This document shows, piece by piece, positions 623-29,841 of a stretch of 64,000 bases of DNA. Below the pieces are notes generated by a model. The model made no database searches, was not told the DNA's origin, and was given only the letters and a program-made list of their open reading frames with translations. The stretch is from a virus. Where the stretch lies: IMG/VR virus record IMGVR_UViG_3300021141_000706. One strand, 5' to 3'. A program made the position numbers and the translations under genes. Numbering within the stretch: position 1 is the stretch's first letter; each line of letters begins with the position of its first letter.

Positions 623-990
623 TGAAATATCTAAAAAGATTTAATGAATCCTCTGACTTTACTCCAGAAGAAATAATGAAAGAATTAACTCTTGGATTAT
701 TAGATGCTGGTTTACAAGTTAATGTTTATTCTGGTGAATATAAAAAATCAAATCACCCAAGATTTGAAGGTGAGTTACATGTTGAGATAACTGATAATAA
801 TAAAGTATTTTGTAAAAACTATCCTGAAGATGATATGGATTGGTTATATGGTAAACCTGTTATTATGGATTTCTTTGATGAGCTAACAGACTTTGGTTTA
901 ATAAGAGATAAAGATTACAAAGTATATGGTGGTGGATTAAATGTTAATTTAGTCTTCCAAAAAGAAGGACTTAATAAAGTTAAACTATAA
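622..990 (+). CDS. Hypothetical protein with capsid-targeting-like leader (MKYLKRFNES)
   Basis: GTG start overlaps the upstream TAG. N-terminal leader motif. Shares an E-I-x-E-x-x-L-x-x-x-D-x-G block with ORFs 16504, 17335 (C-half) and 23784. Confidence 0.75.
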   Translation: MKYLKRFNESSDFTPEEIMKELTLGLLDAGLQVNVYSGEYKKSNHPRFEGELHVEITDNNKVFCKNYPEDDMDWLYGKPVIMDFFDELTDFGLIRDKDYKVYGGGLNVNLVFQKEGLNKVKL

Positions 991-1014
991 CCTGAAACTC
1001 TTTCAGGTTTTTTT
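989..1014 (+). terminator. Intrinsic terminator
   Basis: aacctgaaa-ctc-tttcaggtt hairpin followed by a T-run. Confidence 0.65.
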
Positions 1015-1016
1015 AT

Positions 1017-1035
1017 TATATTTGTAGAATATATA
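1017..1035 (+). promoter_or_regulatory. Adjacent host-type -7 element (TATATTTG) and AATATATA late-type element upstream of cca
   Basis: TATATTTG at 1017-1024 and AATATATA at 1028-1035, just before the ATG at 1041. No clear -33 TTTG seen. Confidence 0.5.
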
Positions 1036-1040
1036 CACAT

Positions 1041-2210
1041 ATGAAATTAAAAAGATATAATCAATTTTTAGAATCTAAATCTGATATGTGGGATATCATT
1101 CCACAATCAGTGAAAGAGTTACACGAACTATTTCAATCAGCAGGTAAGAAACTTTACTTAGTTGGTGGTTCAGTGCGTGACTTCTTAACTGGTGATAAAC
1201 CAAAAGATTTTGACTTAGCAACCGATGCTCTTCCAGATGAAGTTTTGGAAATTGTCGGAGATAAATTTAGAACTAACCTTCAAGGTAAAGCCTTCGGAGT
1301 TGTTGTAGTTTACACTAAAGAAGTTCCAGAAGGAATGGAAATTGCTACATTCAGAGAAGATGTTTCAAAAGGTCGTAACCCAGAAGTTAAATTGGGTGTT
1401 ACTATTGAAGATGATGTTAAGCGTAGAGACTTAACTTACAACTCTCTTTTCTATGATTTAGATACAAGACAAATCGTTGACTTAGTTGGTGGTAAAGAAG
1501 ATTTACAATCTGGTATTACGAGAATGGTTGGTGATCCTATTGAAAGATTTGATGAAGATTCATTAAGAATTTTAAGAGCATTTAGATTTGCTTCAAGATA
1601 TGAACATCCTTTACATAAAGATACTGAAAGTGCTATTGAGAAAAGAAAACAACTTCAAAACATTGATCCAGAGACTGGTGAAATGAAAAGAATTTCTCAA
1701 GAAAGAGTTTGGGAAGAAATGAAGAAAGCTTGGAAACAAGCCAAAGATTACAGATACTACTTATCATTCTTTACTAAGTTTGATATGTGGGATGAAGTAT
1801 TTCCTGTTGCTAACATCAATACTAATTTAGTTGATTCAAAAGACTTTATAGTTGTTGTTGCTAACTTATTTAAGAACGAATCCACTTTAGGTTTGACTGA
1901 TAGACTAGCTCAAGAATATAAGATTGAATTAGAAACAGCTACTAAAGTAACTTTCTTACTTTCGTTATTAAATTTCAAAGTAGAAGATGTATTTGATATT
2001 TACAAGAAAAGACAACAATGTGCTATCACTGATGCTACTATTTTAGAGTGGTTAAAAGTCGAAGGTATTGATACTGATACTTTAGTTAAGTTTGTTGAAT
2101 ACAAACCAAGTGTATCTGCTCAAGAACTTATGTCTCAAGGATTCAAGGGTAAAGATCTTGGTGATGAAATCAAAAGATTAGAGATAGAAAAATTTAAACA
2201 AATGCTATGA
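1041..2210 (+). CDS. cca: CCA-adding tRNA nucleotidyltransferase (class II)
   Basis: Motifs LVGGSVRD..PKDFDLAT, EIATFR, DVKRRDLTYN, RFDEDSLRILRAFRF, RISQERVWEE, and C-terminal GFKGKDLG. Preceded by an MKLKRYNQFLES leader. Confidence 0.9.
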   Translation: MKLKRYNQFLESKSDMWDIIPQSVKELHELFQSAGKKLYLVGGSVRDFLTGDKPKDFDLATDALPDEVLEIVGDKFRTNLQGKAFGVVVVYTKEVPEGMEIATFREDVSKGRNPEVKLGVTIEDDVKRRDLTYNSLFYDLDTRQIVDLVGGKEDLQSGITRMVGDPIERFDEDSLRILRAFRFASRYEHPLHKDTESAIEKRKQLQNIDPETGEMKRISQERVWEEMKKAWKQAKDYRYYLSFFTKFDMWDEVFPVANINTNLVDSKDFIVVVANLFKNESTLGLTDRLAQEYKIELETATKVTFLLSLLNFKVEDVFDIYKKRQQCAITDATILEWLKVEGIDTDTLVKFVEYKPSVSAQELMSQGFKGKDLGDEIKRLEIEKFKQML

Positions 2211-2671
2211 CACATAAATTAACTTATTTAAAAGATGCGGTTGGGAATAATTATGTTGGAATTAATATTCCAAATGAAGTTGTCGAACCACATTTAGAAA
2301 AACTAAAAGAAATTTTAGGTGAAGAAGATTTTGAAATCTTTACACAAAATCAAAAGACGAGAGATCACGGACACTATCACATTACTGTTATTAATGTAAT
2401 GGATTGTAACCGACTTTCTAAAGAAATGGGAATGGCTAACTTTGTTAAATCAGTTGAATTAGCATTTGATTATACTGTAGAAGATTTAGAACTATTAGGT
2501 GTTGGCATGGCTTCTAAGAATGCCAATACCGCTTACTTTATAGTTTGCTCATCTGATAGTTTAGATGCCGTTAGAACTCGTTTTAACTTACCTAAACAAG
2601 ACTTTCATGTTACACTTGGTTTCAATACTAAAGATGTGTTTGGTGTTCCAAAAAATTTGGTAATAAATTAA
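2207..2671 (+). CDS. 2H phosphoesterase (2',3'-cyclic phosphodiesterase / 2'-5' RNA ligase-like)
   Basis: Two HxT motifs (YHITV, FHVTLG) about 75 aa apart. ATGA overlap with cca. Confidence 0.8.
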   Translation: MTHKLTYLKDAVGNNYVGINIPNEVVEPHLEKLKEILGEEDFEIFTQNQKTRDHGHYHITVINVMDCNRLSKEMGMANFVKSVELAFDYTVEDLELLGVGMASKNANTAYFIVCSSDSLDAVRTRFNLPKQDFHVTLGFNTKDVFGVPKNLVIN

Positions 2672-2722: not shown

Positions 2723-2998
2723 ATGGAACTATTTAATTATTACAGCATGGACGAGTGTCCAGAAAGAAAAGTGATCAAAAAAAGACTTACTCAATTAGAA
2801 GAAGAAGGCAAAATCGATTTTGATATCGATGGAGACATTCTTAAAATATCAGACTTAGATTTAGATGAAGATGAGGTTGCTGAGTTAGTAGAAATGTTTG
2901 ATAAATATGATGTCTTTCCTTATCCTGATTATGAAGAAGGAATAGATGATGAAGAAGATGATTACTATGATGGTTTTGACGAAGAAGACGATTATTAA
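2723..2998 (+). CDS. Small, highly acidic hypothetical protein
   Basis: 91 aa, D/E-rich throughout, with an acidic/aromatic tail. Confidence 0.7.
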   Translation: MELFNYYSMDECPERKVIKKRLTQLEEEGKIDFDIDGDILKISDLDLDEDEVAELVEMFDKYDVFPYPDYEEGIDDEEDDYYDGFDEEDDY

Positions 2999-3058: not shown

Positions 3059-5872
3059 TTAGAATGTATATTTAACTGAGGCTGATATTGTTTGACCAAA
3101 GTTTATGTTTTGCCAATTGTTATCACCTTTATCATACTTTTGATTACCGTTCAAGTCTTGGAAGTAAACTAAGTCTTGAGCTAAGATATCTTTTATATTA
3201 AGTTTTGTTTCAAAGTGTTTACCAAACTTTTTAGATACTTGAAAGTCTATAACATTTCTTCCATTTTCCCAAACTGAAGGCTCTTGAATATTACCTACAA
3301 TGTAAATTCTTTGACCAATTACATTATAAGATAAAGTTACTGTCATATCTTTCTTAGGTGTATTATAGAATATACCAGAGTTTATAATGTAAGGTGACTG
3401 ACCTTGTAGTGGTCTGTTCTCACCAGAACCAATGAAGTGACTCATATCAACTGTTGACTTTATTAAAGACAGGTTTGAATAAACTGTTATGTTATCCCAT
3501 ACTTTACTTTCTTTCTTACAGAATGTTCCTAAGTTATATCTAATTTCAAATTCAGCACCGATATTTGTTACTTTATTTACATTAGCGTAGTAAAGTTCAG
3601 GTGCTCCTGATGTACCAGTTCTATTGATTAACTCAATTGGATTCTCAAATGTTTTATAGAAACCAGATACAGATATGATTTGACCTTTACCAGGATACAT
3701 TTCCCATCTAACATCAAAGTTATCTATGGTAGCTCTTTTCAAATTAGGGTTACCACTTACTATATTATCAATAACAAAGTTATAGAAACTAAATGGTGCT
3801 AACTCTCTAAACTCTGGACGAGAAACTGTTCTATAATAAGAACCTCTTACTTTCATCTTTTTGTTTAACGAATAAACTATATTAACTGATGGTAAGAAAT
3901 CAACAACTGTTGTATCAATATGTTTATTTTCGTTAGAACCAAACTCAATATAATTAAATTGTTGATTATATGACTCTATTCTTAAACCACCAATGATTCT
4001 AAACTTCTCACCAATCTTTGTATCTGTCATTGCGAAAGCCGCATTTAGAAAAGAGTTGGCTTGATAACTATCATCAACATTTGTAGCTTCATCTAATTTG
4101 AAACCTCCTTGACCATTTGATAAAAGACCCATATTTTCTTGAGAGAATATCTCATCTGGTCCTAATAGTAGTAAGTTACTATTGAATGTGCTACCTGTTG
4201 GTTTGTATTGAGAGAACCCTAAGTTTCTTGATGAGAAATCACGAGTTCTGTATTGATGCCATCCACCTATCTTAAATTCATTTTCTATTTTATTAAAAGT
4301 AAAAGGAATAGACCAATCATAATTAGCACTGTAGATTTTCTCAGATGATTTAGACCAAAACATATTACCAGCCGCAGTTGGAATAGTTCCATTTTGTTGA
4401 ATAATAGCTGTCCATTGTTGAGTTGTATCATCTTCAAGTAATGAATACTTACGATAAACTAATCTTCTAAGATTTGGAATATCTCTTTTAACATCACTGA
4501 ATCCTAAATTCCAGTTCAATTTAGTTTTCTTAATCTCATGTTTACCATATAGTTGTTGAGTTAATAAATTGTTTTGTGTATACCAGAAGTTTGTTGATCT
4601 TTCCCATTGACGAGGATCATTATCCATCTCTCTAACACCGTTTCTAATATTTACTTTATCTTCTGAATTGATAGAATAAAGATTTTTGAATCTAATTATG
4701 TTCTTATCATTAATCTGATAAGCAAAGTTTAACATAGCACTATTCAAAATAGTTTGAGTAAATACAGAATCTTTCAATTCCATTTTTTGAACAACACCTG
4801 CTGATTGTTCTTCAAAGTCTCTTCTTACTGAGTTATTCATAGTAGAAGCACTTTGATAACTATAAGCGAAAGTTATACCAAGTGAGTTATCTTTTTTGAA
4901 TTTGATATATCTACCAATCGAGTATTGTAAACTACCAATTGGTAAAGCCAATCTTGATTTAGTTGACCAAGAAGTGTTAATCATTTTTGATAAATCCGCC
5001 TTATCTGACTTATTTAGAGTAGAAAAGTCTAAAGTACTTGGCATTGATTCAGGTAAACTTCTATAGTTAGAACCAAACCCTAAGAAGTCAGTAGAACTTC
5101 CTTGATAAGTTTTGAAGTTTTGAAATGTAGATATCGCATTGAATCCTAAACCATACTGAATACTTTGAAACTTAGAATCTTTTGGTTCAGATGTGCTGAT
5201 ATTAATAACACCACCAGCAAACTCACCTGGCATATCTGGTGAACCAGACTTCATAACAATTAGATTATCTAACATATTAGAAGGAAAGATATCAAATGAG
5301 AAAGCTTTTCTATCTGATTCTGAACTTGGTAGTGGAGAACCATTTATTAGAGCGAAGTTGTATCTATCATTTAGACCACGAATAACTACAAACTTATTAT
5401 CTTGTACAGAAGCACCACTCACTCTTTTGAATACATCTGATACTTTCGTATCTGGTGTTTTCTTAAAAGTTTCAGCATTAACACCATCTTGAACGACAGC
5501 ACTGTTGCTTTGTTGTTTAACTAAATCAACTGTTGATTCTTTATTAGCTTTAGCTTTAACTGTAACAGTTCCTATGTCTAAAGTTTTTTCCTTTAACTTT
5601 ATATTTAAAGTGTCTTTTGATGTCGCTTTAATGAATTGTGAATGATAACCCATGTATCTAAATTCTAAAGAGTAAGTAGGTTTATCTAAACCTTTCAATT
5701 CAAATTTACCATTTATGTCAGTTGTGGTTCCTTTTCCGGACTCACCTTGAATTAGTATCAACACGCCAATGACTGGCTCGTTTGAAATCGAGTCAGTCAC
5801 TGTGCCTGATATTTGTGAAAATGCTGTAAGTGTCGATATTAAGAATGTAAATATCAGTAAGAGTTTTTTCAT
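3059..5872 (-). CDS. TonB-dependent outer-membrane receptor, Bacteroidota type (CarboxypepD_reg-like N-domain, plug, beta-barrel)
   Basis: Signal peptide, ISGTVTDS..GTTTDINGKFEL, plug motifs IRGLNDRY and PGEFAGG, barrel motifs SRPEFRELAPF and GNPNLK, C-terminal YTF. Confidence 0.92.
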   Translation of the reverse strand: MKKLLLIFTFLISTLTAFSQISGTVTDSISNEPVIGVLILIQGESGKGTTTDINGKFELKGLDKPTYSLEFRYMGYHSQFIKATSKDTLNIKLKEKTLDIGTVTVKAKANKESTVDLVKQQSNSAVVQDGVNAETFKKTPDTKVSDVFKRVSGASVQDNKFVVIRGLNDRYNFALINGSPLPSSESDRKAFSFDIFPSNMLDNLIVMKSGSPDMPGEFAGGVINISTSEPKDSKFQSIQYGLGFNAISTFQNFKTYQGSSTDFLGFGSNYRSLPESMPSTLDFSTLNKSDKADLSKMINTSWSTKSRLALPIGSLQYSIGRYIKFKKDNSLGITFAYSYQSASTMNNSVRRDFEEQSAGVVQKMELKDSVFTQTILNSAMLNFAYQINDKNIIRFKNLYSINSEDKVNIRNGVREMDNDPRQWERSTNFWYTQNNLLTQQLYGKHEIKKTKLNWNLGFSDVKRDIPNLRRLVYRKYSLLEDDTTQQWTAIIQQNGTIPTAAGNMFWSKSSEKIYSANYDWSIPFTFNKIENEFKIGGWHQYRTRDFSSRNLGFSQYKPTGSTFNSNLLLLGPDEIFSQENMGLLSNGQGGFKLDEATNVDDSYQANSFLNAAFAMTDTKIGEKFRIIGGLRIESYNQQFNYIEFGSNENKHIDTTVVDFLPSVNIVYSLNKKMKVRGSYYRTVSRPEFRELAPFSFYNFVIDNIVSGNPNLKRATIDNFDVRWEMYPGKGQIISVSGFYKTFENPIELINRTGTSGAPELYYANVNKVTNIGAEFEIRYNLGTFCKKESKVWDNITVYSNLSLIKSTVDMSHFIGSGENRPLQGQSPYIINSGIFYNTPKKDMTVTLSYNVIGQRIYIVGNIQEPSVWENGRNVIDFQVSKKFGKHFETKLNIKDILAQDLVYFQDLNGNQKYDKGDNNWQNINFGQTISASVKYTF

Positions 5873-5878
5873 ATAGAA

Positions 5879-7462
5879 TTATTTTCTAACTATAATCTTT
5901 TTTGTTGTATTATCAACTTGTAAGAAATAGATACCATTCGTAAGTGTACTAACATCTAAACTAAGATTTCCTGATACTGTTTGAGTATTAATTACTCTAC
6001 CCATACCATCGATTAAAGTTACTTGTACTAATCTATCAGTTGTGATGTTTACATTGTTTGTAGCAGGGTTAGGGTAGATAGATACGTTTGTAGTTTTAGT
6101 AATCTCATTTACACTAACAAATCCACCAACAAATTTAGAGTTTGTGAAATCAGCTCCTGTTGCTACTAATGAAGTAGAATCTAATCTACAGTCAGGTGTA
6201 GTTCCTAATGTTGGAAAAGCATTGACCCAATTGATTTGAGATACTGAAGTTGTTGTATCATTTACTGAAGCAACTGTTGTAAAGAAAGTTGGTGTGGCAG
6301 TTACATAACTAGCACCTAAAGGTAGTTCAGTTAAAACATTGTTTGAGAAAACTAATGTTCCAGATGTTACGTTATTCTCACAAGAAGGACCTTCGATTGA
6401 TAATCCTTTTTCCCAACCAACTACTAAAGAGTTGAATACTGAGATAGAAGAGTTTCTTCTAATTCTAAAAGCTTTTTCAAATTTTTCACCAACTGGTAAA
6501 GATAAAGAACCATTTCCTTTAGCTCCAATAATTGTTAAGTTTGAGAATATTGCTGCTGTTTGTGGTGTGTTAGCTGAACCAGCCGCATCGTTATCTGATT
6601 CTAAACCGTTTGAGTCACCAGCCGCATCATACATAGTATTATCACGAATGATTAAACCAAATTGAATTCTACCTCTGTAACCAAAATCAGTATCGAAGTC
6701 ATCATCAATTCCTCTGTAAGCGATTAGATGTTTACAATCAACTGTGCCACCAAACCATTCGTAAGAGTCATCACCTGAGAAAGAAACTTGTATAAAGTCT
6801 ACTTGAGTTCCTCTACCAACTGAACCAAAAGTAATACCGTTGATTTCTTTGTTTGGTTCTAAAGCGATACCAGCAAATTCAATTCTTACATATTTTAATG
6901 AACCTGAGTTATCATTGTCATCTGATCCACCATATTGTGTATTAGCAGTTGGTACAATACCTTCAATGTTAGCAACACCACCTGGTTGATTATTTGTAGC
7001 TTGACCTAAGATAACTAAACCACCCCAGTCACCTTCAGCTCTATTACCAACTGATTCATTTGAAGTGAAAACGATTGGTAAGTTTTGTGTACCTTCAGCT
7101 ATTATTTTACAACCTTTAGTAACGATTAAAGTTGCTTGTGTTGCTTTGTCACCTCTGATAATTGTACCAGGTAAGATAGTTAATGTAGCTCCGTTAGTTA
7201 CATAGATTTTATTTTGTAATAAAACATTACCACCGATTGTTGTGTTTGTTGTAATGTCTGAGTTAAGTGTAGAAGTAGTTGAAGGATAGTTAGTGTTTTC
7301 TGGGTCGAAATTTGACCATCCATATGTCCAGTTTGTACCTGGTGTTCCATCAGTTACAGGGAATGCTCCTTTGTAAGATGTTGCTGTCCAAAATGTAGAC
7401 TGTGCGTTTAGACTAAGATTAAGACCAAGTCCGATTAAAATAAGAGTAAATAATTTTCTCAT
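5879..7462 (-). CDS. Secreted beta-helix-like protein with T9SS type A C-terminal sorting domain
   Basis: Signal peptide, GDWGGLVILG, SGSLKYVRIEFAG, DDSYEWFGG, DDDFDTD. CTD motifs IYPNPA..GIYFLQV..KKIIV. Confidence 0.88.
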   Translation of the reverse strand: MRKLFTLILIGLGLNLSLNAQSTFWTATSYKGAFPVTDGTPGTNWTYGWSNFDPENTNYPSTTSTLNSDITTNTTIGGNVLLQNKIYVTNGATLTILPGTIIRGDKATQATLIVTKGCKIIAEGTQNLPIVFTSNESVGNRAEGDWGGLVILGQATNNQPGGVANIEGIVPTANTQYGGSDDNDNSGSLKYVRIEFAGIALEPNKEINGITFGSVGRGTQVDFIQVSFSGDDSYEWFGGTVDCKHLIAYRGIDDDFDTDFGYRGRIQFGLIIRDNTMYDAAGDSNGLESDNDAAGSANTPQTAAIFSNLTIIGAKGNGSLSLPVGEKFEKAFRIRRNSSISVFNSLVVGWEKGLSIEGPSCENNVTSGTLVFSNNVLTELPLGASYVTATPTFFTTVASVNDTTTSVSQINWVNAFPTLGTTPDCRLDSTSLVATGADFTNSKFVGGFVSVNEITKTTNVSIYPNPATNNVNITTDRLVQVTLIDGMGRVINTQTVSGNLSLDVSTLTNGIYFLQVDNTTKKIIVRK

Positions 7463-8458: not shown

Positions 8459-8543
8459 GGTCGGGTGGTGGAATAGGTAGACACGAGGGACTTAAAATCC
8501 CTTGCCCCTAAAGGGCGTGCGGGTTCGATTCCCGCCTCGACTA
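8459..8543 (+). tRNA. tRNA-Leu (anticodon TAA), CCA not encoded
   Basis: Acceptor GGTCGGG/CTCGACT, anticodon arm AGGGA-CTTAAAA-TCCCT, long variable arm, T-arm GCGGG-TTCGATT-CCCGC. Confidence 0.93.
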
Positions 8544-8551
8544 CAAATATT

Positions 8552-8625
8552 GGTTGCGTAGCTCAGCTGGATAGAGCAACTCACTTCTAATGAGTAGGTC
8601 ACAGGTTCGAATCCTGTCGCGATCA
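8552..8625 (+). tRNA. tRNA-Arg (anticodon TCT), CCA not encoded
   Basis: Acceptor GGTTGCG/CGCGATC, D-arm GCTC/GAGC, ACTCA-CTTCTAA-TGAGT, T-arm ACAGG-TTCGAAT-CCTGT. Confidence 0.93.
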
Positions 8626-8638
8626 CAAATCAAATAAA

Positions 8639-8896
8639 ATGAGAACATCAATACTATCAGTGGCTGCTTTAGGAATTCTATCAATTGGTTTTATGTTTGG
8701 TTCAGTTGTATCAAACGGTAAACGTGAGAAGATAGAACAGTCTTATCAAAGTAAAATTGACTCACTAGGTCTTATAATTGAAGATAAAGACTGGCAAATT
8801 GAAGAATTAGAAAAAGAAATCTCTTTTAGAGAATCAGAAATTAGCTACTGGGGTCAAAAGTACGATTCGCTTCGATTCGAAGAAAATTGGCCCTAA
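8639..8896 (+). CDS. Small membrane-anchored coiled-coil protein
   Basis: N-terminal hydrophobic helix followed by a heptad-rich segment. Confidence 0.7.
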   Translation: MRTSILSVAALGILSIGFMFGSVVSNGKREKIEQSYQSKIDSLGLIIEDKDWQIEELEKEISFRESEISYWGQKYDSLRFEENWP

Positions 8897-8903
8897 TAAA
8901 GTA

Positions 8904-8980
8904 GCCCTTGGGCCTCGTTAAGCCTCTTACCCTAGTGGTAACGTAACGAGTGGGAGTAGGGTAACACCGACGCCTCCCAA
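8904..8980 (+). ncRNA. Candidate structured RNA within the tRNA cluster
   Basis: GC-rich island. Pairings ctcgtta/taacgag, ttacc/ggtaa and tgggag/ctccca, plus an alternative ttacccta/tagggtaa. Class not recognised. Confidence 0.45.
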
Positions 8981-8984
8981 ATTT

Positions 8985-9058
8985 GGTCCTGTAGCTCAGT
9001 TGGTTAGAGCAACTGACTCATAATCAGTAGGTCCACGGTTCGAGCCCGTGCGGGACCA
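8985..9058 (+). tRNA. tRNA with CAT anticodon, probably tRNA-Ile2 (lysidine type, reads AUA); elongator Met not excluded. CCA not encoded.
   Basis: Acceptor GGTCCTG/CGGGACC with C4-G69 and C5-G68 (TilS-type determinants), ACTGA-CTCATAA-TCAGT. No initiator features. Confidence 0.88.
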
Positions 9059-9075
9059 CTAAAAAAGAAAAGAAT

Positions 9076-16993: not shown

Positions 16994-17338
16994 ATGAAAC
17001 TCGATATCAATGAAGTTTACCACAATTATATAGTTAGAATAGTAATATTTGCTCTTTTTACTTTCAAAAGACAGATAAGACAACCAAATATTTATAAGAT
17101 TTCTGTTATAACTTTCACTATTAAAAGATTGCCTTGGAAAATTAATTTAGTAATTGATACTGGATTGAAATTAAATAAAGAAGATGAAAGAGAAATACTA
17201 CTTAATGAATTATTAGAGGGTATTGAAACAGATTATTTATCAACAGTTGTTGTTACATTTGTGACACCATTAAAAGAAGTTACGATGAGTATTGATTTAA
17301 GTGATGAAGAAAAGTATGAACACTATCTTTATTCTTAA
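16994..17338 (+). CDS. Hypothetical protein with an internal copy of the tag (EREILLNELL)
   Basis: 114 aa ORF divergent from 16977. Confidence 0.55.
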   Translation: MKLDINEVYHNYIVRIVIFALFTFKRQIRQPNIYKISVITFTIKRLPWKINLVIDTGLKLNKEDEREILLNELLEGIETDYLSTVVVTFVTPLKEVTMSIDLSDEEKYEHYLYS

Positions 17339-18627
17339 TATTCAAATATTACTTCAGCTCTTCTGTAGTTTAAGTCATATGAACTAAATCCAAAGATATC
17401 ACAGATTCTTTCAAATTTATCATCACAACTTTCTTCAGATGGTAATTCACCATCATAAGCATAAGAACTAAATTCTAATTTTGTTTCATAATCACCTATT
17501 CTTATACTTTCAACTCTGAATCCTAACTTTTCAACTTCTTCTCTTAACTCATCTTCATCAGGCAATTCGAATTTATCATTTTCAATATCTGTCTTACTAA
17601 ATTCAAAAAATACCCAATCAATTTTAACTTCTTTACCTTTTCCACTAGTTTCACTACGCCAAGCACCATCAGATCCTGCTCTAAAAGTAGAAAGAACCCA
17701 ACCATCTTCACCTAATCTACCAATTGTGGATTGCATGTTATCAAGCACTACCATTAAGTTATTATAACTACCATCTTTAGGTGAATAAACAATAGTAAAT
17801 TTACTAACCGTTTTATTTTTAGATACAAGAACTGGTTTGAAGTTTTGATACCTTGTATTCTTCTCAAGATAATCTGTATAAGTCATTTCACCAGTAGATG
17901 ATTTGAATGTTATCTTTTCACCTTCATCAATAAAGTCTAACATAGTATCAACTATCTTATCAACTTCATTTTCAATACCGTGTGATTCTCTTAAAAAAGA
18001 AACATACTTATCTACTTTTCTTTTCTTTAACTCACCATTATCAAATTTATAGTATTTATAATTACCATCTTTATTAAGAACAACATAGAAAGCATCTGGT
18101 TTAACATATTTCAAATAACTTTTTGTAGTTTGTAGTTGAGTTGAGTAGACATGGTCGATATAATCATCATCTGCCGTATGACCACCCGTCATTCCTCTTT
18201 TTTTGTTTTGTGACTTAGCAGTCTCAACATCAATTAAAATTAAGATAAACATTATCTTATATCCTAATTTTTGAGCGTCTTTTGTAATTTCAAAAACATT
18301 TATATCATTTGAGCCAGTTGTGTCATAGATAAAGTTTTGACCGCTTTTCATATAATGTTTTAATGAAGTAATATTTAATTCAGAAGCTCCTTTGTAATAG
18401 TCAGACTTGTCTTTAGTAAACAAATAAGAAACATCATCTGTTGAAAATGTTTTGATATTTGAATTATGAGGAACAATGAATCTATTGGCAAATGTAGACT
18501 TACCAGAACCAGGTAGACCTAAAAGAACAATGCCAAGTTTTTCTTTCATCCTATTGATTTCAGGAATAGGATCATTCTTAGAATACTCTTCATTTACAAA
18601 ACCACTGAAATTGTTAATAACTTTCAT
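17335..18627 (-). CDS. Zeta-toxin/AAA_33-like P-loop kinase fused to a second domain; capsid-targeting-like leader
   Basis: GLPGSGKST, FIYDTTG, RGMTGGH, leader MKVINNFSGFVNEE, internal KYVSFLRES. Confidence 0.75.
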   Translation of the reverse strand: MKVINNFSGFVNEEYSKNDPIPEINRMKEKLGIVLLGLPGSGKSTFANRFIVPHNSNIKTFSTDDVSYLFTKDKSDYYKGASELNITSLKHYMKSGQNFIYDTTGSNDINVFEITKDAQKLGYKIMFILILIDVETAKSQNKKRGMTGGHTADDDYIDHVYSTQLQTTKSYLKYVKPDAFYVVLNKDGNYKYYKFDNGELKKRKVDKYVSFLRESHGIENEVDKIVDTMLDFIDEGEKITFKSSTGEMTYTDYLEKNTRYQNFKPVLVSKNKTVSKFTIVYSPKDGSYNNLMVVLDNMQSTIGRLGEDGWVLSTFRAGSDGAWRSETSGKGKEVKIDWVFFEFSKTDIENDKFELPDEDELREEVEKLGFRVESIRIGDYETKLEFSSYAYDGELPSEESCDDKFERICDIFGFSSYDLNYRRAEVIFEY

Positions 18628-18658: not shown

Positions 18659-18689
18659 TTTGTTTATCAAGAAAAGTTTCCTATATTTG
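18659..18689 (+). promoter_or_regulatory. Bacteroidota primary-sigma promoter
   Basis: TTTG, 19-nt spacer, TATATTTG. Confidence 0.75.
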
Positions 18690-18706
18690 TAGAAACAATT
18701 TTATAT

Positions 18707-19561: not shown

Positions 19562-19583
19562 TTATATTTGTAAAAAGAAAAAT

Positions 19584-20090: not shown

Positions 20091-20122
20091 TTTGTGTTAG
20101 TCAAAAATAAAAACTAAATTTG
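20091..20122 (+). promoter_or_regulatory. Bacteroidota primary-sigma promoter
   Basis: TTTG, 20-nt spacer, TAAATTTG. Confidence 0.7.
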
Positions 20123-20138
20123 TATAAAAAATAACCAT

Positions 20139-29147: not shown

Positions 29148-29476
29148 TGTTAGACGATACAGATAATTATATAAAAGATAATCTTCAAAATATCATTGAT
29201 GGTAAGTTTGATGATAAGTTTTCAAAAGAACAATTAAAGATGATGTTAGAAATGTCATTTTTATATAATCATATTAGTGTTGAAAATGATTCAGTTATAT
29301 TTGAGTATGATAGTCAGGAATTAAAAATCTCAGGTATTAATGACCTTGTACATTCAATACCAACCGGTATAGATTATAAAAATCAAATATTTTCAACGAT
29401 TAAAAGTGATGTAGTTTTCAAATCGGCTCTTACTCAATTTTTGAGAGATAAAAAAATTAATGAAATATTAGAATGA
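29147..29476 (+). CDS. Hypothetical protein with C-terminal tag (LRDKKINEILE)
   Basis: ORF in operon. Confidence 0.65.
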   Translation: MLDDTDNYIKDNLQNIIDGKFDDKFSKEQLKMMLEMSFLYNHISVENDSVIFEYDSQELKISGINDLVHSIPTGIDYKNQIFSTIKSDVVFKSALTQFLRDKKINEILE

Positions 29477-29841
29477 AAGTATTTTTAATAGACATAGACG
29501 GAACTTGTTGTGATGATATAATGAACGAAGATGCTCATTTATATCCAACAGCTAAAGTGATTGAAGGATCACTTGAACAAATTAATAAGTGGTATGAAGA
29601 AGGTAATCATATCACTTTCTTTACTGCTCGAGAATCAAAAGATAGAGAAGTTACAATCAAATGGTTAGATGATAACGGTTTTAAGTACCATGGTTTGGTA
29701 ACTGATAAACCAAGATGTATAAACCCAGAAGATGAATATGTTTGGGTTGATAATAGAAAAGTAAGAGGTATTACATATAATTCAGTTTGGGGCGATCTCA
29801 AAGAAGTGAATAAAAAAATTTTAACATTTGGAGATGAATGA
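29473..29841 (+). CDS. Small cap-less HAD-superfamily phosphatase
   Basis: LIDIDGT, FFTAR, KP, WVDN. Confidence 0.8.
   Translation: MKVFLIDIDGTCCDDIMNEDAHLYPTAKVIEGSLEQINKWYEEGNHITFFTARESKDREVTIKWLDDNGFKYHGLVTDKPRCINPEDEYVWVDNRKVRGITYNSVWGDLKEVNKKILTFGDE

Follow-up and report, generated by a model that had tools for sequence, protein, structure and literature searches.

A cca-2H phosphoesterase-orf2723 gene unit in a huge Bacteroidota-type phage as a possible tRNA-care operon

Why should a phage keep an enzyme that builds tRNA 3' ends beside one that may open cyclic phosphates? This question is raised by the start of a stretch of viral DNA of 64,000 nucleotides (nt) from the IMG/VR record IMGVR_UViG_3300021141_000706, in the following referred to as the window. 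Three genes follow each other on its plus strand: cca (1041..2210), which encodes a predicted class II CCA-type tRNA nucleotidyltransferase of 389 amino acids (aa); a gene for a stand-alone phosphoesterase of the 2H-SAK family (2207..2671; 154 aa), a predicted RNA 2',3'-cyclic phosphodiesterase; and orf2723 (2723..2998), which encodes a 91-aa acidic orphan protein and forms the third gene of the unit. We give an even chance to the reading that this unit is a tRNA-care operon of a huge Bacteroidota-type phage. The CCA enzyme would mainly complete the ~50 phage tRNAs whose genes stop at discriminator-C-A/T-A, by adding C75 and A76, and it could also restore CCA ends that have been trimmed. The 2H protein would most likely open 2',3'-cyclic phosphate ends of (t)RNA that arise from metal-independent RNases or from spontaneous cleavage. 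In the case of 3'-end damage, the opened ends may then be extended by the CCA enzyme; alternatively, in the case of anticodon-loop breaks, they may be sealed by the phage ligases Rnl1 or Rnl2 following 5' phosphorylation. The link between cca and the 2H gene would be one of loose co-expression, not that of an obligate coupled pair. Substrate, regiochemistry, order of the steps and any role in counter-defence are what we infer here from the sequences.

The identity of the nucleotidyltransferase follows from profile matches (Pfam, PHROG and PDB) and from its catalytic motifs. It matches PF01743, the head domain of poly(A) polymerases and CCA enzymes, with 5.5e-30 and phrog_2244, annotated as 'tRNA nucleotidyltransferase', with 2e-59. 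Motif A of the Pol-beta nucleotidyltransferase head is present (GGSVRD 42-47, DFD 56-58), and motifs B to E are found at the expected spacing (RRD 128-130, DLVGGKEDL 147-155, EDSLR 172-176 and ERVWEE 221-226). The best solved relative is the CCA-adding enzyme of Planococcus (6ibp, E 1.7e-31), to which residues 18-205 align, including the flexible loop between motifs A and B. The protein is thus predicted to be a CCA adder of class II. The match to PRK10885 is restricted to profile positions 2-208 of 409, and no HD domain is found in cca with Pfam or NCBIfam, as an earlier note on this DNA had stated; because this domain was tested for and is absent, cca falls outside the HD-fused class. CCA-adding enzymes have previously been reported in huge phages (PMC7162821). 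In three related lineages cca is split into two open reading frames (ORFs) by a homing-endonuclease-like insertion (L003:2090-3139, L023:2356-3033 and L037:2552-3427); by eye, one of the inserted genes is GIY-YIG-like.

The second protein is a lone 2H domain without a fused phosphatase, kinase or ligase domain. It matches PF22547 (2H-SAK) with 1e-20 and 74.7 bits, the gathering cut-off being 27, and carries two HxT motifs (HIT 58-60 and HVT 134-136). Among 66 relatives H58, H134 and D143 are invariant, and T60 and T136 are kept in at least 90% of the sequences. The 2H fold is certain for the modelled protein: the model has a predicted local distance difference test score (pLDDT) of 97, and in a structural search (VIA, Foldseek-independent) the best 21 matches are all 2H enzymes, with Z 7.8 to 4.7, the next match having Z 3.1. 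These enzymes comprise LigT (1vgj), Deinococcus CPDase, coronavirus (MHV) ns2, CNPase, Usb1, AKAP18, ASCC1, Acb1 and a poxvirus cyclic GMP-AMP (cGAMP) phosphodiesterase; in BFVD the best matches are 2H-SAK proteins. Both enzyme identities proposed in the earlier note are thus borne out, although subfamily and substrate of the 2H protein need more than structure. Most 2H orthologues carry a C-terminal extension of ~95 aa, which the window copy and four others lack. Although the extension is modelled confidently (pLDDT 91), structural searches give it no persuasive relative (best Z 5.0; Foldseek E 0.058 or higher). An assignment as an AcrIII-1/DUF1874 ring nuclease was rejected: the weak PDB matches (2x4i and 6scf, E ~0.02) stem from a profile of the full-length 245-aa protein, and a profile of the extension only failed to reproduce them.

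The most informative hints on the substrate come from the company that 2H-SAK domains keep. In the viral contigs L048 and L055, proteins of 828-838 aa combine, in this order, 2H-SAK, a PTP-SAK phosphatase, a P-loop kinase (AAA_33) and an Rnl2-type RNA_ligase domain; shorter fusions join 2H, PTP phosphatase and kinase (L052) or 2H and PTP (L053). On a 345-kb phage contig (L045) the 2H-SAK gene immediately follows Pnkp (kinase plus HAD_PNKP), and kinase-2H (P0245) and 2H-HAD_PNKP (P0249) fusions are found in the databases. These fusions to, and neighbourhoods with, enzymes of RNA ends favour healing of RNA 2',3'-cyclic phosphate ends over degradation of immune signals, and they tie the 2H-SAK family to repair of RNA ends, in support of the earlier note. 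A scan of bacterial DNA with a sequence pattern yielded a single true 2H-SAK case, in Thalassotalea between ligA/DUF3392 and an M48 peptidase gene, which is uninformative, and one chance match. The family has no entry in NCBIfam and no mention of it was found in the literature searched; the background on SAK proteins used here rests on the Pfam names and on PMC7824862.

Judged from its sequence, the window, with a G+C content of 30%, is part of a huge phage with Bacteroidota-type hosts and is kin to Mahaphage genomes of 634-642 kb. Its first 3 kb are 69-74% identical at the nucleotide level to the genomes of two uncultured phages (634 and 642 kb); genomes of this size are covered by the Mahaphage clade, the predicted hosts of which are Bacteroidetes (Al-Shayeb et al. 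2020, PMC7162821). Only three phages in GenBank have 2H homologues, all of them uncultured and of 634-642 kb. The closest relative is a genome of 476 kb (G001); it runs colinear to the window, with nucleotide identities of 72-91%. A protein 99% identical to the window cca (P0275) comes from a contig listed with 816,658 bp, more than the 735 kb given for the largest phage genome in PMC7162821; this contig could represent a larger relative, but also a concatemer or a mis-assembly.

How firmly are the three genes tied to each other? In the window, the ORFs of cca and 2H overlap by ATGA (2207-2210), as the earlier note had described, and orf2723 begins 51 nt past the 2H gene with no terminator in between. 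Such an overlap is ordinary in the window because 9 of its 64 same-strand junctions have it, while overlaps of any length occur at 23 of the 64. For a comparison, 54 viral loci with a 2H relative were gathered, in which cca and orf2723 were then located; the following counts refer to 34 distinct loci with the same 2H subfamily (39-90% identity). In 27 of them, down to a 2H identity of 42%, cca is found at most 4 kb upstream of the 2H gene. Its end is at most 300 nt from the 2H start in 16 of 34 loci, in 11 ORFs are inserted between the two genes within the 4 kb, and in 7 cca lies outside the available flank. None of the inserts has a link to RNA (they comprise orphans, an ankyrin protein, an exonuclease and a CoaB-like DFP), and a true overlap exists in 2 of 34 loci only. 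Thus, of the expectation that cca and 2H travel together, linkage in most related huge phages stands, whereas the translational coupling assumed in the earlier note is not conserved. The most constant neighbour of the 2H gene is orf2723, a homologue of which starts at most 400 nt behind it in 29 of 34 loci; the protein has a very acidic tail and belongs to no Pfam, PHROG or Atlas family. Near the distant 2H-SAK genes (<37% identity) in the collected viral loci, no cca was found. The linkage of cca and 2H is hence genuine and fairly persistent inside one clade, yet loose.

The role of cca itself is best approached through the tRNA genes. Three of them, Leu-TAA, Arg-TCT and Met-CAT, are located in the window (8459..9059, plus strand); in each, a discriminator A is followed by CAA, CAA and CTA, respectively, so that CCA is encoded in none of the three, and their transcripts are likely substrates of cca. 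Of the 53 tRNA genes that ARAGORN calls in G001, CCA follows in 4 only, leaving 49 without; nearly all read N-CAA or N-CTA, so that the genes supply C74 but neither C75 nor A76. With few exceptions, the phage's own tRNAs thus require addition of these two nucleotides at the least. This need alone is sufficient to explain a phage cca, and maturation of the phage's own tRNAs would be its simplest role. Several Lys, Glu, Asn, Thr, Gln and Ile tRNAs of G001 (L068-L071) are called at 83-88 nt (e.g. 219872-219959, 231626-231712 and 257011-257097) and coexist with copies of 72-76 nt that have the same anticodon; a long variable arm, an intron or an artefact could account for them. No RNase P RNA was found with Rfam in the 40 kb of G001 that correspond to the region upstream of cca.

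A number of observations weigh against a tRNA-care operon. In one relative, from the seven loci with cca outside the flank, cca and 2H are ~50 kb apart, and no cca-2H fusion protein was seen, which is weak evidence as the searches were word-limited. Since the linkage is restricted to one phage clade, it may mirror shared descent only. After ring opening a 2'- or 3'-phosphate would remain, for which no phosphomonoesterase partner was found: in the five related genomes in which RNA repair families were sought (G001, G003, G004 and W01 among them) PTP-SAK occurs in none and HAD_PNKP in one. The earlier note had nominated a HAD-like ORF at 29473-29841 as the phosphatase. This ORF exists and encodes a small DxDxT protein with weak matches to LNS2 and to acid phosphatases, located between PRPP synthetase (phosphoribosyl pyrophosphate synthetase) and FolD among genes of nucleotide metabolism; it has, however, no homologue anywhere in G001, where cca-2H persists, and is therefore not a conserved partner. 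Furthermore, in two bacterial proteins (P0201 and P0263) a 2H-SAK domain forms the C-terminal part, fused behind Cap15-like transmembrane helices and a cyclic-dinucleotide receptor. Finally, the NCBIfam models for pcnB and for CCA enzymes both score ~150 bits on cca, far below their cut-offs and slightly higher for pcnB; scores from hidden Markov models fail to tell a CCA-adding enzyme from a poly(A) polymerase here.

The related genomes hold a wider RNA repair kit, which bears on the first alternative: the 2H protein may act solely with a kinase and an Rnl1-type ligase on anticodon-loop breaks, in the manner of the tRNA ligase Trl1, the place next to cca being inherited gene order without a direct hand-over of ends. 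A cyclic phosphate would be converted to 2'-phosphate and 3'-OH, the 5' end phosphorylated, the break ligated and the 2'-phosphate removed by Tpt1 or by the host's KptA. A T4 Rnl1-type RNA ligase and P-loop kinases are present in all five related genomes, in two of which (G004 and W01) a kinase ORF lies just upstream of Rnl1. The T4-type Pnkp phosphatase is missing in four of the five, so that another healer of 3' ends is needed, and Trl1 uses a 2H cyclic phosphodiesterase (CPD) domain (PMC6379707). In G003 a single strand carries, within ~9 kb, cca, 2H, NUDIX, NAMPT, PRPP synthetase, an orf2723 homologue, a 176-aa ORF and Rnl1, broken by one opposite-strand zinc-finger ORF. The orf2723 homologue (35% identity, E 4e-13; L083:1775-2044, minus strand) is two genes upstream of Rnl1. 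Given this array, the 2H protein could equally feed a Trl1-like ligation pathway; more generally, with Rnl1, Rnl2 and kinases present, its role may lie in repair by ligases no less than in the rebuilding of CCA. The same genome is the only one of the five with Tpt1, and its genes for salvage of nicotinamide adenine dinucleotide (NAD) together with Tpt1 are consistent with NAD-dependent removal of the 2'-phosphate in this phage. The NAD salvage genes are situated between 2H and the orf2723-Rnl1 group (L083, 248-253 kb of G003), and Tpt1 is ~12 kb off.

Jumbo-phage 2H enzymes have indeed been proposed to clear cyclic ends for ATP-grasp ligases, and CCA-adding enzymes to restore tRNA 3' ends (Iyer et al. 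2021, PMC7824862). A purely ligase-based role is nevertheless unlikely: in four of the five genomes the 2H gene is ~50 kb from Rnl1, yet beside cca, and Tpt1 is absent in four of five. In G001, for instance, Rnl1 adjoins an Rnl2-type ligase and an HD-domain protein ~50 kb from cca-2H. RtcB and PTP-SAK were not found in the five relatives. In the window itself, a tagged protein of 430 aa (17335-18627, minus strand), 75% identical to a G001 protein, has a P-loop kinase domain (AAA_33 4.4e-09, Zeta_toxin 9.9e-09) and could be a polynucleotide or a small-molecule kinase.

The tag of this protein belongs to the second alternative, the strict form of the earlier note: cca and 2H would constitute a dedicated heal-and-rebuild module of two genes, in which 2H opens the cyclic phosphate, the HAD protein dephosphorylates and cca rebuilds, in order to counter toxins or defences that clip acceptor ends or block them, possibly after delivery in the virion. 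The adjacency of the genes in 16 of 34 loci and their overlap in the window speak for such a module, as does a cca without the HD domain that heals ends in E. coli. The capsid-targeting-like leader that had been claimed for cca is present as well: 15 aa, MKLKRYNQFLES, precede an internal Met16 and follow the pattern M-K-x-[LIV]-K-[KR]-[YFW]-x-x-F-x-E, and this tag resembles the T4 capsid targeting sequence. It heads ~14 of 90 window ORFs that are otherwise unrelated in sequence (starts at 622, 1041, 14696(-), 15462(-), 16504(-), 17335(-), 24193(-), 36877(-), 43606(-), 44371(-), 45357(-), 46047 and 58674). In related loci it likewise heads many ORFs, including a run of ten paralogues at 236-240 kb of G003. 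In relatives there is a match to the T4 head protease family (S77), which is weak and sub-threshold.

Against the strict module, the tag is found on most cca orthologues, others beginning at the equivalent of Met16, and the 2H protein is untagged; delivery of both proteins as a module in the virion is therefore unsupported. By analogy with T4, cca might conceivably be packaged, which would not extend to 2H, and the end of the leader, FLE-S, breaks the (L/I)-x-E rule of T4. The HAD protein lacks a homologue in G001, and in relatives DFP, ankyrin, exonuclease or orphan genes stand between cca and 2H. Moreover, the CCA-less phage tRNAs already account for cca, and no acceptor-end-cleaving defence has been identified for these hosts. 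Altogether, the strict module is rather improbable. A bolder variant is doubtful to a similar degree: the unit might be a split, non-homologous equivalent of the E. coli CCA/HD enzyme, with orf2723 as a third component (e.g. a partner or a nuclease decoy), directed against a hypothetical Bacteroidota defence or toxin that clips acceptor ends.

Third, the 2H protein may be unrelated to cca and degrade cyclic oligonucleotide immune signals, like Acb1, or small cyclic phosphates such as ADP-ribose 1'',2''-cyclic phosphate. Acb1 and the poxvirus cGAMP phosphodiesterases share the 2H fold, the bacterial receptor fusions described above point in this direction, and the NAD salvage genes adjoin 2H in G003; a signalling role for phage 2H enzymes is also raised in PMC7824862. 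The two receptor fusions themselves may represent effectors of the cyclic-oligonucleotide-based antiphage signalling system (CBASS) type or self-limiting sensors. The structural match to Acb1 (7t27, Z 6.2, root-mean-square deviation 3.6 over 105 residues), however, falls inside the range of other 2H enzymes, and RNA-acting ones match as well or better (Z 7.8 to 7.0). At the level of sequence, PDB and PHROGs gave no match to Acb1, most of the informative 2H-SAK fusions involve RNA-end enzymes, and the AcrIII-1 match of the C-terminal extension is weak and was not reproduced. An anti-signalling function is consequently quite unlikely. Finally, it is very improbable that the nucleotidyltransferase is a poly(A) polymerase or another non-CCA enzyme and that the pair acts on 3' ends of mRNA or other RNAs: the higher pcnB score and the presence of the E. 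coli poly(A) polymerase among the PDB matches are outweighed by a CCA-adding enzyme as best PDB match, by a motif E that reads ER, as it does in CCA enzymes, by the PHROG annotation as tRNA nucleotidyltransferase and by dozens of CCA-less tRNA genes in the phage, going by the G001 count.

The boundaries of the cca-2H-orf2723 unit are marked by several signals. On the plus strand, an intrinsic-terminator-like hairpin (989..1009), a stem of 9 pairs followed by the T-run TTTTTATTAT, ends the preceding gene and delimits the cca transcription unit on its upstream side. Two promoter-like motifs, which the earlier note had reported in front of cca, follow at 1017..1036 and recur in the window: a Bacteroidetes-type -7 box, TATATTTG(TA), the core of which is at 1017-1024, and AATATATACA, which is 4 nt ahead of the cca ATG and fits a phage-specific upstream motif. 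Throughout the window, a host-like TAnnTTTGTA is found 21-40 nt ahead of eight ORF starts, and the phage motif, (T)TTAATATATA-like, 4-10 nt ahead of the ATG at about twenty ORFs; the 7-mer ATATATA occurs in 23 upstream regions, as compared with 1.5 expected. The short distance of the phage motif to the ATG suggests very short or absent leaders. As cca bears both motif types, the unit looks as if it were served by two types of promoter. Overall, upstream motif sites precede ~28 ORFs (e.g. at 1017-1036, 18682-18706, 19563-19583 and 20115-20138, and before 15462(-), 17335(-), 23222(-), 43853(-) and 57116). Directly beyond the unit, a convergent gene encodes a TonB-dependent receptor of 937 aa (3059-5872, minus strand), which is followed by a 527-aa protein with a type IX secretion sorting tail (5879-7462, minus strand). 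In L009 and L027, genes for secreted proteins of a similar kind separate cca from 2H.

What would a tRNA-care operon mean? The ordinary reading still assigns a likely role to 2H-SAK, a very abundant metagenomic family (731 representatives), and it shows that in the huge phages of this group hardly any tRNA is complete before CCA addition. If the 2H protein does hand healed ends to the CCA enzyme, the unit would represent a second, independently evolved solution for repair of tRNA 3' ends, and such a hand-over would be a hint that acceptor ends of tRNAs come under attack by some hosts when a phage infects them. The analysis also draws attention to the protein encoded by orf2723 and to the 95-aa extension as constant companions of the 2H enzyme.

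Four known systems offer partial likenesses, apart from the jumbo-phage RNA repair toolkit. (i) The T4 capsid targeting sequence (MKTYQEFIAE) is, like the tag of cca, a short N-terminal M-K-..-Y-x-x-F-x-E element common to unrelated proteins; unlike it, the cca tag ends F-L-E-S, outside the cleavage rule. (ii) Acb1 of the phages T4 and FBB1 (7t26 and 7t27) is a small phage enzyme of the same fold, with ~150 aa and two HxT motifs, to which the window protein has no detectable sequence kinship; the family context of the latter points to RNA ends. (iii) The window 2H protein is in the same Pfam family as the Swiss Army Knife proteins (2H-SAK, PTP-SAK and HAD_SAK). In the fungal and plant tRNA ligase Trl1 the order is ligase, kinase and 2H CPD domain; unlike in these proteins, the window 2H stands alone, and ligase and kinase are separate, distant genes in related phages. 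(iv) The E. coli CCA enzyme carries a fused HD domain with cyclic phosphodiesterase activity (Yakunin et al. 2004, as cited in PMC6961547), and the precedent invoked in the earlier note is thus a real one. Motifs A-E of the nucleotidyltransferase core are the same in the phage cca. The E. coli enzyme combines CCA addition with clearing of a 2',3'-cyclic phosphate at the 3' end of tRNA, and the phage unit may, by analogy, do likewise. The candidate healer of the phage, in contrast, has a non-homologous 2H fold and is encoded by a separate, loosely linked gene, and no 2'-nucleotidase or phosphatase activity is accounted for in the phage unit.

Along with the E. coli enzyme, the closest parallel is the RNA repair toolkit of jumbo phages (Rnl1, Rnl2, RtcB, Pnk, 2H, HAD phosphatases and CCA enzyme), which has already been described in silico with 2H and CCA enzymes among its members (PMC7824862). 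The component families are the same, and so is the proposed logic, in which 2H enzymes clear cyclic ends and CCA enzymes restore 3' ends. What the present locus adds to the passages considered from that account, in which the parts are listed, and what may be regarded as modestly new, is the conserved cca-2H-orf2723 operon in Mahaphage-like phages and, within it, a 2H-SAK subfamily with a private extension of ~95 aa.

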